From Dimargaris cristalligena (taxonomy: Eukaryota), in assembly GCA_003614675.1 (NCBI GenBank), contig ML002232.1:1-64000 (forward strand): DNA of 64,000 bases, given 5' to 3'. Below are positions 33,650 to 57,480 of this stretch, piece by piece (position 1 is the first letter of the stretch; every line of letters starts with the position of its first letter). The notes beneath the pieces are model-generated. The model made no database searches. It was not told the DNA's origin and worked only from the letters and a program-made list of their open reading frames with translations. A program made the position numbers and the translations under genes.

Positions 33650-34510
33650 ATGTATTTATCCTGGGTTAGTATTTTGGCGTCGGCCTATTCGAGCGTGTAC
33701 ATGGTTCAAGCGGCGCCCGTCACTGGCTCGCAACAGCCCCCAATTTCCCAGGCCGTAGTTCTACGGACGCCATCCCCCAGGGGCTATTCCCGCCCGAGCC
33801 ACAGCTCCCACACCCCTACCCATTCCGATCTCAACCCGGTGAGTAGTTTCGACCGTATTCTGTTTAACCCCGACCCAATTCAATCCAGCTACTATCAACA
33901 GTCTTTCGATGACGAATACAGTGATAGCGAGGACGACACGGATTTTGTGCAAATTCCCCGAATGACCGGAATCCCCCCGGCCGATTTCCCCCCGCTGCGC
34001 CGCGGGTCCGCGTCTTTCATAGCCGGCGGTAGCTCTATCCTAAAATCCGCCCTGGGTTTCTTCAGTTCGCGGCCGTGCCCCCCACCACTGCCGCTATCGA
34101 CCACCTCCTTGACCGCCCGTCGGCGACTTACTGAACATTCGACCTCCTCCCATTCGTCAGCCAACGACCTGGACGCCTTTTTAGACCTGGTGGATTTTAT
34201 GAAGGACTCGCAGCCGGCCTCCTTCCGAACCGAAACCACCGCCACCACGAACGGTGGGGGCGATGGCGACGGTGACGGCTGTTTTTTGGCTCGGTCCCGC
34301 TGGGAGGATTTAGAGCGGGCCTTCGACTACCATCGGAAAATGGCCCACATGGGCTCAGATCAATCCCTCTCCACAGTCCCGGAACAGACCGACGGAACTC
34401 ACACTCCTTTACCCTGTCCGGATGCTAGTATCGAGGCGATGAATCAGGAATTCACCCCCACTTGCAGCCAGAATTCCGGGAAGTTGAACTCTAAACCTCC
34501 CCAGCCCTAG
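33650..34510 (+). CDS. Secreted, largely disordered protein of unknown function (286 aa)
   Basis: ATG in good context; signal peptide MYLSWVSILASAYSSVYMVQA|AP; Ser/Pro/acidic-rich body; GC-rich coding composition between AT-rich flanks. Confidence 0.75.
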   Translation: MYLSWVSILASAYSSVYMVQAAPVTGSQQPPISQAVVLRTPSPRGYSRPSHSSHTPTHSDLNPVSSFDRILFNPDPIQSSYYQQSFDDEYSDSEDDTDFVQIPRMTGIPPADFPPLRRGSASFIAGGSSILKSALGFFSSRPCPPPLPLSTTSLTARRRLTEHSTSSHSSANDLDAFLDLVDFMKDSQPASFRTETTATTNGGGDGDGDGCFLARSRWEDLERAFDYHRKMAHMGSDQSLSTVPEQTDGTHTPLPCPDASIEAMNQEFTPTCSQNSGKLNSKPPQP

Positions 34511-35884
34511 ACAAGAAATAAAAAAAGATTTCAGAAGCCATAGACGAATAAGTGGCATATGTTTTCTATAGAAGATATCCACCCTCTGAGCATTTTTTCG
34601 TTTTCCTTTTGCAGAAAGATCTATTTCGATTTCGATTTCTAAATTTAACAACATGTATTAGGAATAAACAACCTTTAGTGCCAGAATAACCAATGCCATA
34701 TATTTTTATTTGTCTCTGCAGATGATCTCTGTTAGATTTCGGCTGCATTTGGAAGTACCTGTCAGAGCATCAGGAGTTACCAATTGGGTCACATTGGGTG
34801 TCGAGCATGTCAAATTCCCAAAGGGAAGACAACCTAAGCACATGTATGCTAGACAATCTGGGCTTTACGCTGGGTCTATTATCACATTCAGAAATCGAGT
34901 GGTTTTCGACTAAACCCGAAAAAAATAAATAGATAAACACAAGCCACATTATCTATATCCCAAAATGACGTTGAAAAGTAGCGATTGAATAGTGGGGAAG
35001 GTTCGAATGGAAGATAGGATCTACTCAGTTATATACCGATTTATATATACTTGTTGGATTGCAAGATTCTTCGGTAAACAGTTGATCCGCCTGTTCTGAC
35101 ATCAACCTTACCCCCCCTGTAATGTCCTAAGCAGATGTATGGGGAGGAGGAGGAGGAGGAATGGGACATTATTTCCCTTTGAAAAAGAAACCGCTGCCTG
35201 CTACCAAACGCTCAGATGATCCATCAGCGGCCCGCTTATTGTTCAATTTCCGCATGGTTGGGTCGCACTTGTACCCTTAGCGGCTGGCCTAAAGACAGAG
35301 ACGTCAGCGCTCCTCCCCACTTTTCATTTCTTAGTTGGTGGGAATAGTTGGGTAGACGGGGTACAAAATATATAGGGAATGCCTCCTTTTGGGCTATTTA
35401 CGCCATTGCCGTCCGGTGGCTTCCGTTGAGATGAATGTAAGGAGAGGAGAGAAAGAGGGCATGGTAACTAGGATTGGATGATAGAGTTTTTTAATAACAG
35501 AAAGGGGCGAACGGAGAGGGAAGAGGCACCTTTGGTAATGGGAACGGGCGTCTAACCTTCTTAAGATGACCCAATGCACTTGATTTATTATAAGACAACG
35601 CCCTTGCGACCTTCTAGCATATATGACTACTATTGAAAACCTCTGCCTTCAATATCTATTTCAAAAGCCATACCCAGTCGTTTTAAACCGGAAGTCACTT
35701 ATTCTTCTGACGTAAAGCCTTTTCGCACTTGGCCTCTCGACTTGTTGTTCCCAATTTCTTCCTTCACCATAGGGCTTCCATCCACTAGGTTTTGATACCG
35801 TATTACACTCTGTCCGCATATTCATTTGATAACTATACACCCACTCGATTCCTTTGGGAAAAAAGGTAAAATTCGCTACACATC

Positions 35885-54806: not shown

Positions 54807-57480
54807 TTAAGGCTCTTTGTCATTGAGGCGTTCCGGAAGCTGCAAATAAAACGGCTGATTCGTAATGTGACTATTAACACTAGGCCGGTCCATGTTGTTA
54901 GGATGGGGGTCTTGGAAGGAATAGCCAGTACCCTGACTGGAAACTGGGCTCGGTCGAATCCAGGGGCCATTGGCATTGGATGGGACCGGCACGGGCATGG
55001 TGTATGCTCCGGTGAACTGTTCCACATTAGCAAAGGGAGGGATAGTGGGGGCCTGATTCGACGGATACGGGGCATGATTAGGAGAATCATTGACGGGTAT
55101 GACCTCACTGATCGATTCGGTGGCAGCCTGGTTCAAGGAGATGGAATGAACGGGTACATTCGGAGCCGGTATGGTCCAGTGTGAGTTCAGGGAAGTCTGC
55201 ATCGGCAGGTCCTGGTTAACAGGGGTGAAGTCTTCATTCATATCTTGTTGAGAAGGCACGAAGACGCTCTCGGTTTCTCTATTCCAAGGGGACTGAAATA
55301 TATACTCAACTGGTAAAGGCGGCCCCTGGGTAGAGAGCTCGGTTTTGTCCTCAACAAAAGAGGAGTGGTCATTCTCGGCTACCGTGTTTTTCGGTGGTTG
55401 CAAGAAAGACTCAACCGGTAGAGCCTGCTCCTGGACAGAGAGCTCGGTTTTGTCCTGGACAGAAAGGGGACGGTCATTCTCGGTTGCCGTGGTCTTCAGC
55501 GGTTGCAAGAAAGCCTCGACCGATAAAGGCTGCTCCTGGATAGAGTGCTCGGTTTTTTCCTCGACAACAGGGGGGCGGTCATTCTCGGATGCAGTGTTCT
55601 TAAGCGGTTGCAAGAAAGCCTCGAGTGACAAGTCCTGGTCAGGGGTAGCGGGTGTGCCTCGGTCTTGAACGAAAGACGTGGGGGTGCGCTTGAGCTGCTT
55701 GCTCCCGAATGGCTGCAGGAAAGACTCGACTGACATGCTATGACTATCGGTGGACGCCATACCCCGATCCTGAACGAAAGAGGCGGAGTCGGAAATTACC
55801 TTGTTCGGAACGTGGGTCTTTTCCGCGTCCAAATAACTGTTAGTCCCTCTAAGCTGCTCTTCCTCTGCCAATAATTCATCAGGCTCGTTAAAATAAGTCA
55901 CTTCGACTGGCGACTGGGATTGTTCTACGGGTACGCTATAATGCCAGGATGAAATACCATTACCGTAATATATACATCGGCAATACCATATGGGTGTAGT
56001 TAAGTGGGTTAGATATAATTTACATGGCGATTCCATCGGTCCAATCTATGTGCACACTTTGTGGCAGGATGGGACATTGCTTTAGGTAGCGGGTGTTTTA
56101 GGGAAAGTTGAATCCTCTAAAATCGAAGCAACGTCGCGTAATCCATCGGAGATACCCTTAAGGGTGCAATTAAATCGTCGGCAACCGCCAAGTGATAGCT
56201 ACGCTGGTCTGAGTAAATTAGTACGTGTGGCAGAAGCCAAAATTCAGTAGTACTTACCTGGAGGTCGAATCCTTCGTCGATTCGCTAACTTGACGAGGAG
56301 GAATGAAGCCGGTAACGACGGGCGAATTAAATCCCACATGCTTTCCATTATCGGCCGAATTGCTTACGGAGGTGTCCTGGGCAGTAGTTTTGGAGTGCAA
56401 CGTGGGAGAGCAGGGCAGCGGGCGGCCATTATTCCAGGCACCTTGAGTACCCACCGGTGGGATGGTCTCGTCGTTGTTGCCATCCGCGCGGTTTACCGAT
56501 TCAGTAGGCGAGTAGTTCGAATCATTGAACTCCATGGATTGGGGCAGCACGCGCCCAATATCACTGCCATTCTCGGAGCTCGATGCAATCTCCTCCATAT
56601 AGTCGGTGAGTTCCTTCTGCAGGTTATCCAGAGACGCAGTGGTCTGCTGATTATTAGGAACAGGGATAGAGGCTGGTATCTGATTAGAGGGGTGTACCTC
56701 CCCCTCCAAAGAGTTGGCTTGGAAAGAGGTCCGTCCGGCCGGGCTTTCGGCATCCATATCCGGCTCGGATTCGGTAGCGGTCTCGTCGAGATAGATTTCA
56801 CCCTCCACCAAATTTGATTCCTCCTCCTCATCCTGGTCTTCCGCATCCATGGGCAACGTGGAAAGGAGGACGTTATCCTGGTCGTCCACCAGAGTCAGGT
56901 ATCCTCGGCTTCTCTCCTGACCATTCTTATCGGTCTCCAGAATACAAAAGCCGGCCTTGCAGCGGTACTGGCGCCCATTTTTGCTCAAAACGCCCGTCCA
57001 TTCGATATGGTCCGAGGCCGATAGGACTTCTTCTTCTTCCTCCTCCTCCTTTTCCGTCGAGGGTTCGTCATCCTCGCCTTCTTCTTCTTCGGCCTGTGGA
57101 TCGCTGGCTTCGGCCACGTTCTCGGATTCTTGAACTTCAGCGCGGATAGACTCGAAATCATCGGTTTGAATGGCCGCATCGATTCCTACAACAGCCTTGG
57201 CCTTAGGTTGGATGGACTCGGGCACCGATTCCTCAGACTCTGCCGAAGATGACGACGGGTCGGGGGTATCCGCGGGCAGCAAGGGCTGGTAGTCACCAAA
57301 TCCCACTATATACAGATTGTTGACATCCGACGGCATGGCCTCCCCCAGCCAGATCTTGGCGTCCGCGGTGGCCAAGAACGGCATGAAGATTTTGTTGGAG
57401 GGAATAGAAGCGGCCGAGGCCACCTGGAGTAGGGCTAGGCCCACCAGACCAATTAGGATGCGGGGCGTGGAGGCAACCAT
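54807..57480 (-). CDS. Large secreted acidic/disordered protein with internal 35-aa repeats (~783 aa); exons 57480-56258, 55935-54807
   Basis: Signal peptide MVASTPRILIGLVGLALLQVASA|AS; donor AG|GTAAGT at 56257 and acceptor TAG|C at 55936 join ORFs 56254..57513 and 54807..56036 in frame. Confidence 0.75.
55230..55790 (-). repeat. Degenerate coding tandem repeat, 105-bp (35-aa) period, ~5 copies
   Basis: Core [LM][SP][VL]E[AS]FLQP recurs at exact 105-nt spacing (anchor bases 55401, 55506, 55611, 55716) with a diverged LPVEYIFQSP copy at ~55296. Confidence 0.9.

Follow-up and report, generated by a model that had tools for sequence, protein, structure and literature searches.

Five signal-bearing orphan genes in Dimargaris cristalligena

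We analyzed a 64,000-nucleotide stretch of the Dimargaris cristalligena genome (assembly GCA_003614675.1, contig ML002232.1, positions 1 to 64,000 of the forward strand), hereafter the window, and focused on five of its open reading frames (ORFs) that are predicted to encode secreted proteins. All five are ATG initiated and are here named A to E. A (33650-34510, 286 aa) and B (35885-36427, 180 aa) lie on the forward strand; C (36754-37392, 212 aa), D (51909-52874, 321 aa) and E (56254-57480, 408 aa if read unspliced) lie on the reverse strand. Also on the reverse strand is ORF F (54807-56036), which encodes an acidic disordered region with tandem repeats and represents either a separate ORF or, from 54807 to 55935, the second exon of E, in which case exon 1 spans 56258-57480. 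The window as a whole is intron-poor eukaryotic DNA with a G+C content of ~42-58%.

An earlier reading of this DNA, the original prediction, had attributed it to a parasitic early-diverging fungus. This assignment was correct: D. cristalligena belongs to the Dimargaritales, which live as mycoparasites on Mucoromycota by means of haustoria (PMC10386755). Exact look-up of ten window ORFs in a public collection (NCBI, UniRef and eukprot being named for A) returned eight, including A, B, C and D, while E at 408 aa and stand-alone ORF F had no exact entry among these ten. Copies of B and D named D. cristalligena in NCBI are 99-100% identical, and cluster mates at ≥90% identity are annotated as ‘hypothetical protein H4R33_... 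[Dimargaris cristalligena]’. These named cluster mates point to D. cristalligena, or to a strain almost identical to it, as the source of the DNA. A-E are already deposited as hypothetical proteins, four as exact models and E within a longer public model, P0012.

Coding evidence and variation between assemblies

Coding potential was assessed with a codon table derived from nine conserved window ORFs (4532 codons), with the references scored leave-one-out. In their own frames, A-E gave codon log-likelihoods of 0.15-0.21 per codon (A, 0.185; B, 0.152; C, 0.211), which was the best of the six frames in each case, and a G+C content at third codon positions (GC3) of 0.61-0.66, with A at 0.66. The nine reference ORFs ranged from 0.11 to 0.33 with GC3 of 0.58-0.77, and three probably noncoding ORFs had negative scores and GC3 of 0.41-0.43. 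C is overlapped by long antisense open frames, but these scored lower (0.064-0.101) than the reverse-strand frame (0.211). The signal of ORF F was weaker (0.056, GC3 0.57). Codon usage of A-E matches that of conserved window genes, and the genes look real.

Both available assemblies contain these ORFs, of 180-408 codons, uninterrupted. A, C, two membrane-protein genes described below and AGM1 are identical in both; B differs by one substitution (variant P0003) and D by a 6-aa indel, the copy in the other assembly carrying a PEVPTV insertion at aa 131/132. When the region 37600-57590 was compared across four sequencing runs, three single-base differences were seen outside a 5S repeat, too few for a selection test. 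Two of them are coding, both nonsynonymous and both in E (S302P and A235D, at 56577 and 56777), and one of these variants also occurs in P0012.

Gene model of E and F

The stop codon of E lies inside a 5′ splice site, CAG/GTAAGT. P0012, the public model of 783 aa, joins residues 1-407 of E to ORF F at ...KDSTS/SVPVEQ, implying a putative reverse-strand intron of 322 nt (55936-56257, GTAAGT...TATAG). An alternative intron of 49 nt (56209-56257, reverse strand) has a perfect TACTAAT branch site and a CAG end; with it, E would end three codons later, at ...STSRPA. The cysteine dioxygenase gene of the window, recognizable by Pfam CDO_I in two ORFs, contains an intron of ~348 nt (43698-44045, forward strand, GTATGT...TTTTAG) that is confirmed by the protein continuity GPGQKS/PIHDH. 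Introns longer than 300 nt, therefore, exist in this otherwise intron-poor genome, and a length of 322 nt is not odd here. The splice site at the stop codon and the public model make a product of 408 aa improbable for E, although the choice between the two candidate introns leaves the E/F gene model uncertain. ORF F contains three 35-aa tandem repeats of the form SVE[AS]FLQP.K.T..END..., which correspond to a DNA repeat at 55314-55624 with a period of 105 bp, 3.0 copies and 82% matches.

Absence of detectable relatives

Homology searches found almost nothing beyond the proteins themselves. D retrieved only itself among 2205 candidates, B only its strain variant P0003 at E ≤ 10 (322 candidates), and a HMMER search with E against 1.84 billion representatives found P0012 alone. 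For A and C, PDB searches at E ≤ 1 gave no match, and each is the sole member of its 90% cluster. Nor do A-E match one another: in an all-versus-all blastp of the 124 window ORFs of at least 60 aa, no two of them were paired at E ≤ 1, and the membrane proteins at 46434 and 49275 formed the single paralogue pair. B, D and E are without detectable orthologue, and A-E are probably species-restricted ‘orphan’ genes.

Export signals, composition and fold

Signal peptides were judged by a heuristic that combines a hydrophobic window with small residues at -3/-1. By this measure, B, C, D and E have strong signal-peptide-like N termini, with best 9-aa Kyte-Doolittle values of 2.3-2.8 and AXA-like sites. 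The original prediction of five signal-peptide proteins within 24 kb, thus, holds for the ORFs as such and for the signals of B-E, whereas the signal of A is weak and the product of E probably does not have 408 aa. Proteins with signal peptides are expected to be lumenal or extracellular unless translocated. No second membrane segment was found in mature A-E (maximum 19-aa hydropathy ≤1.12), nor did A-E contain a [HK]DEL signal (HDEL/KDEL) or a PIR repeat pattern. A glycosylphosphatidylinositol (GPI)-like tail was likewise not found in A-E, whose C termini are polar and without a hydrophobic tail, as judged without a NetGPI-type predictor. Polar C termini and the missing PIR pattern set A-E apart from GPI and PIR wall proteins. 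Among known uptake motifs, RxLR-dEER, the Crinkler motif LFLAK, PEXEL and Y/F/WxC were all absent from the ~60 residues after the signal peptides of A-E; the only RxLR in these proteins is at aa 236 of D.

The mature proteins have isoelectric points (pI) of 4.05-5.82 (A, 5.06), and E reaches a net charge of -56. They contain 0-4 Cys and 0-3 N-glycosylation sequons, and A-E comprise 13-23% Ser plus Thr and 7-11% Pro; long Ser/Thr mucin tracts were not found in any of them. Individually, A is acidic and rich in Ser, Thr and Pro, B has no Cys, and E contains poly-E tracts. C has, besides its signal peptide, an acidic segment rich in Trp, DEEWEPLWGDVFEDEWGMGSWLQDEW, and an RG/YG-rich tail. Within aa 130-160 of C are three acid-Trp sites (DEEW, EDEW and QDEW) and two WG dipeptides, followed by the tail at aa 165-205; this composition is unusual for a signal-bearing protein.

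By the Uversky charge-hydropathy boundary, all five mature chains are classed as disordered, A and D by a narrow margin. No Pfam family scored above its cut-off for any of the five; matches of C to DUF7183 (16.1 versus a cut-off of 27 bits) and of E to DUF2275 (below the cut-off) were rejected. AlphaFold2 (AF2) models computed without alignment had a predicted local distance difference test (pLDDT) of 39.5 for D and a mean of 42.6 for E, in which a small β-sheet at aa 160-190 alone reaches 66-72. ESM Atlas models had pLDDT values of 0.40 (D) and 0.48 (C). A search of that atlas gave no usable look-alike for D or C, the best score for C being 0.76, below the chance level of the tool, and all structure rows had template modeling (TM) scores ≤0.32. 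With 0-4 Cys and no confident fold, A-E do not resemble Cys-rich apoplastic effectors, and the description of the set as acidic proteins lacking an enzyme or disulfide-rich fold is upheld.

Short motifs and their chance expectation

The proteins had further been credited with docking motifs: an acidic [WFY]xx[LIV] motif in each, LC8-type QT motifs in two and an RVxF motif in one. If functional, these would let the proteins, after crossing the haustorial interface into the host cytoplasm, dock to Atg8 through an acidic Atg8-interacting motif (AIM), to dynein light chain LC8 through QT and to protein phosphatase 1 (PP1) through RVxF. The acidic-aromatic strings are all present: DDTDFVQI in A (aa 95-102, forward strand), EDYEYAII in B (aa 158-165, 36356-36379, forward), DEEWEPL in C (aa 132-138, 36979-36999, reverse), EEYESI in D (aa 145-150, 52425-52442, reverse) and DDFESI in E (57145-57162, reverse), the last within AIQTDDFESI at aa 102-112. 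D additionally has AVQTE at aa 122-126 and DDEEW at aa 194-198 (reverse strand).

For a quantitative test, an AIM-like pattern was defined as [WFY]xx[LIV] with at least two acidic residues among the three upstream positions. It occurs exactly once in each of A-E (five observed, 0.88 expected), with per-protein shuffle probabilities of 0.10-0.28. Taken jointly, the five occurrences have P = 7 × 10^-5 with global and 1.8 × 10^-4 with 30-aa local shuffles, values uncorrected for the post hoc choice of both pattern and proteins. The 12 other window proteins contain five such matches, in four proteins, against ~2.35 expected. Of the five sites, EEWEPL, EEYESI and DDFESI fit a stricter LC3-interacting region (LIR) pattern, and those of D and E lie in regions modeled with pLDDT <50, probably disordered. 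Functional AIMs do lie in disordered regions, but the plain consensus gives many false matches, with 33 of 310 functional in 36 validated binders (PMC9907853).

The enriched part of the motif is not the part specific to AIMs. The acidic-aromatic element [DE][DE][WFY] is found nine times in A-E, compared to 2.06 expected with global (P < 0.0005) and 3.61 with local shuffles (P = 0.006), and five times in the 12 control proteins (4.5 expected). Of the nine sites, only three continue with [LIV] at +3 (binomial P = 0.155). For the core [WFY]xx[LIV], A-E contain 19 matches against 13.4 expected (P = 0.063). We also used tests that count the search space. In a shared-6-mer test, which takes the best BLOSUM62 sum-of-pairs score over any three proteins and compares it to shuffled sets, the maximum for A-E was 68 versus 63.8 ± 4.4 (P = 0.18; local shuffles, 0.22) and the sum 582 versus 558 ± 19 (P = 0.11-0.17). 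Because this test includes the search space, the trio EEWEPL/EEYESI/DDFESI is unremarkable, and a shared [DE][DE][WFY]E[SP][IL] motif in C, D and E, with a post hoc P of 1.5 × 10^-9, was rejected as evidence. A reduced-alphabet scan over 313-320 triplets with family-wise P values placed acid-acid-aromatic second against global shuffles (z ~4.9, P = 0.015-0.028).

Results for the other two partners were at chance level. The LC8 motif is anchored by TQT, and the PP1 RVxF pattern is [RK]x(0,1)[VI]{P}[FW]. TQT is absent from all five proteins. QT dipeptides occur in four of the five rather than in two (seven versus 4.49 expected, P = 0.15), and [TVI]QT in D and E only (two versus 0.64 expected, P = 0.13). 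The loose RVxF pattern matches two proteins instead of one, A (RILF, aa 69, forward strand) and E (KHVGF), against 0.70 expected (P = 0.16). The shuffle check suggested alongside the original prediction, thus, came out divided: the AIM-like pattern is nominally enriched (joint P ~10^-4), whereas its xx[LIV] part is not, and the unbiased tests were mixed or null. These one-window controls do not support the idea that translocated proteins use motif mimicry towards Atg8, LC8 and PP1.

A recurrent aromatic-aliphatic-proline motif

A different short motif recurs near the mature N termini. F[IM]P is present twice in B (IFIPKL, aa 26-31, and IFIPVL, aa 55-60; forward strand) and once each in D (PFIPKN, aa 50-55) and E (IFMPFL, aa 31-36; both reverse strand), in every case after the signal peptide and 5-37 residues past the predicted cleavage site. 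It falls within the first 40 mature residues in three of the six signal-bearing ORFs of the window and is absent from 5569 control residues (post hoc P = 3 × 10^-6). In the triplet scan, aromatic-aliphatic-Pro was the top triplet against local shuffles (six versus 1.09 expected, z 4.8, family-wise P = 0.02), with a family-wise P of 0.17 against global shuffles and ~1.1-1.3 expected over both. An N-terminal version of the shared-6-mer test was null (P = 0.42-0.82), and N-terminal Smith-Waterman scores were unremarkable except for the B-E pair (P = 0.017, uncorrected, 15 pairs), which at full length shows weak similarity (z 3.5, P = 0.003). Given the null 6-mer test and the weak pair scores, a homologous N-terminal module shared by B, D and E is, like the borderline F[IM]P motif, kept as a lead rather than a finding.

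The sixth signal-peptide-like ORF, of 136 aa, lies at 1004-1414 on the reverse strand. In contrast to A-E, it is classed as folded by the charge-hydropathy boundary, and it has neither F[IM]P nor an acidic AIM-like motif. The annotation of the other assembly includes a partial version of 89 aa.

Genomic neighborhood

Fungal housekeeping genes in the window encode a phosphoacetylglucosamine mutase, an armadillo-repeat protein, a short-chain dehydrogenase, a phospholipid methyltransferase, an SH3 protein, Rad17/Rad24 and the cysteine dioxygenase. Between A and E lie a 5S rRNA gene, a 5.8-kb ORF-poor stretch, the cysteine dioxygenase gene and two paralogous membrane-protein genes. As A-E are interspersed with these other genes, they do not form a dedicated cluster.

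The 5S rRNA gene (38352-38470, forward strand) is complete (Rfam RF00001, 100.8 bits) and stands alone in an ORF-free stretch. In the sequencing runs, word depths at this site are in the thousands, compared to ~74-280 elsewhere, with many different flanks, which together suggest dispersed multicopy 5S genes. The surrounding ~5.8 kb (37400-43200) have no ORF of at least 130 aa and the lowest G+C content of the window (0.42-0.46), and include a poly-C run of 27 nt at 37607-37633. Either this region is a spacer with few genes, or intron-bearing genes in it may have been missed by ORF listing. The membrane-protein genes (46434-47468 and 49275-50309, both forward) are tandem paralogues of 344 aa each that are 46% identical (E = 3 × 10^-88). 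Each product has at least four strong hydrophobic segments, as in multipass membrane proteins, and each gene has an exact public model; neither matched a Pfam family at E ≤ 0.1.

Interpretation

That A-E are real orphan genes whose products are disordered and enter the secretory pathway is very likely and forms the descriptive core of our interpretation. The explanation that we prefer goes one step further and regards them as orphan, acidic, disordered secreted proteins of D. cristalligena that act outside the host membrane, with a probability of roughly 0.45. On this explanation, A-E would enter the endoplasmic reticulum through their N-terminal signal peptides and be released from the hypha or haustorium. 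Their site of action might then be the parasite-host wall or the haustorial interface, without entry through the host plasma membrane. Flexible polyanionic chains with acidic clusters beside aromatic residues could bind cationic or carbohydrate wall material or wall-bound cations. Walls of Mucorales hosts are rich in chitosan, and these would be one example of a binding surface; binding could serve adhesion, masking or building of the interface. Matches to Atg8, LC8 and PP1 motifs would be mostly by-products of composition. Taken by itself, the component that A-E act extracellularly or at the parasite-host interface is put forward tentatively.

Several points weigh against this explanation. 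Export signals and disorder were judged by heuristics only, and the signal heuristic gives A a best Kyte-Doolittle value of only 1.64 and no basic n-region. Low pLDDT for an orphan in single-sequence folding is compatible with disorder and no proof of it. Against 20-aa local shuffles, the acid-acid-aromatic triplet dropped to rank 4 (z 3.2, family-wise P = 0.61-0.62), so that the acidic-aromatic enrichment may reflect regional composition only: acidic and aromatic residues share segments, and their strict order may be unremarkable. Of the five proteins, the large-database homologue searches covered B, D and E. Signal-bearing genes amount to five of ~9, which has a binomial P of ~4 × 10^-4 at the Zoopagomycota mean of 8.5% (PMC9391592), but ~0.4 such 24-kb blocks are expected by chance in a genome of 20-30 Mb, the size range used for this estimate (PMC9866270), and gene clustering itself is, therefore, not compelling. 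Finally, secretion, disorder in vivo, site of action and binding partner of A-E are what we infer, and binding to chitosan or the wall is pure inference.

Among the alternatives, the one that fares best is that A-E are structural or matrix parts of the parasite itself, such as noncovalent wall proteins, spore-drop mucilage or adhesive, without any manipulation of the host. The acidic composition with its Ser, Thr and Pro content and the 35-aa tandem repeat of the E/F gene would suit such a role, as would the missing enzyme or Cys-rich fold, and acidic-aromatic clusters would be apt for carbohydrate or cation binding here too. We nevertheless consider it unlikely: A-E have no GPI-like tail, PIR repeat or long mucin tracts and few sequons, and B, D and E have no detectable relative, although conservation across an order or beyond is the rule for wall proteins.

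It is more improbable still that some or all of the five are young or decaying orphans with little function, or proteins retained in the endomembrane system, whose motif content is noise. The lack of homologues, the low-confidence models and the ambiguous E/F gene model would be expected in that case, and relaxed constraint would likewise yield the nonsynonymous and indel differences seen between samples. Against this, each of the five, read in its correct frame, agrees with conserved genes in codon usage and GC3, and the ORFs are intact in both assemblies.

Translocation into the host with docking to Atg8, LC8 and PP1, favored by the haustorial lifestyle, the joint P values of the AIM-like pattern, its placement in probably disordered regions, the LIR-like trio and an established precedent discussed below, is unsupported and appears very improbable, as pattern and proteins were picked after looking, most consensus AIMs are nonfunctional, [LIV] at +3, QT, RVxF and shared 6-mers stayed at chance, no known uptake motif lies near any N terminus and no orthologues of B, D or E were found that could show motif conservation. 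A bolder version would be that the five orphans and the E/F repeat protein are an effector repertoire acting from haustoria, in which DEEW, EEY and DDF bind components of the host cytosol, Atg8 for example, and IFIPKL, PFIPKN and IFMPFL, 5-20 residues past the signal in B, D and E, serve as a sorting or uptake signal. We regard this as a long shot; if true, it would offer a first glimpse of the effectors by which a zygomycete mycoparasite manipulates another fungus. Returning to extracellular action as the preferred explanation, the evidence reaches as far as candidate secreted proteins that are plausibly lineage specific, and no further.

Comparison with known systems

Full-text searches, including those for effectors of haustorial mycoparasites in the Zoopagomycota, retrieved no paper on Dimargaris effectors. 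To our knowledge, nothing is known of the molecular dealings of such parasites with their fungal hosts. The precedent for AIM mimicry by a secreted effector is PexRD54 of Phytophthora infestans (PMC5025708), with which A-E would share export by a signal peptide and a motif of the acidic [WFY]xx[LIV] type, which might fit Atg8 pockets. PexRD54 has its own RXLR uptake motif, folded tandem domains, validated ATG8 binding and a plant host. A-E, by contrast, have no RxLR near the N terminus, no confident fold and a fungal host.

Oomycete RxLR effectors with disordered regions (PMC9045269) provide an example of disordered secreted proteins that act through short motifs. In A-E, the motifs differ from these in being neither validated nor conserved and in having mixed statistical support.

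Smut effector clusters are largely families of paralogues that are induced in planta, and A-E may be likened to them loosely, by gene neighborhood only. The resemblance is to the Pleiades cluster of Ustilago maydis (PMC8224859), in which neighboring genes of a biotrophic fungus encode secreted proteins without recognizable domains. Unlike the smut clusters, A-E do not match one another at E ≤ 1 and are interspersed with the cysteine dioxygenase, 5S rRNA and two membrane-protein genes.

A further counterpart is the set of lineage-specific small secreted proteins of zygomycetes (PMC9391592), which are likewise signal bearing, without Pfam domains and restricted to close relatives, and which, by that account, are abundant in Zoopagomycota whatever their ecology. 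Proteins counted as small there have <300 aa, so that D, at 321 aa, and E, at 408 or 783 aa, are too long. The main text of that study does not mention Dimargaris, and its supplementary tables may list A-E. As intact, codon-adapted candidate secreted proteins known from one species only, A-E provide a reasonable starting set for expression and localization work.

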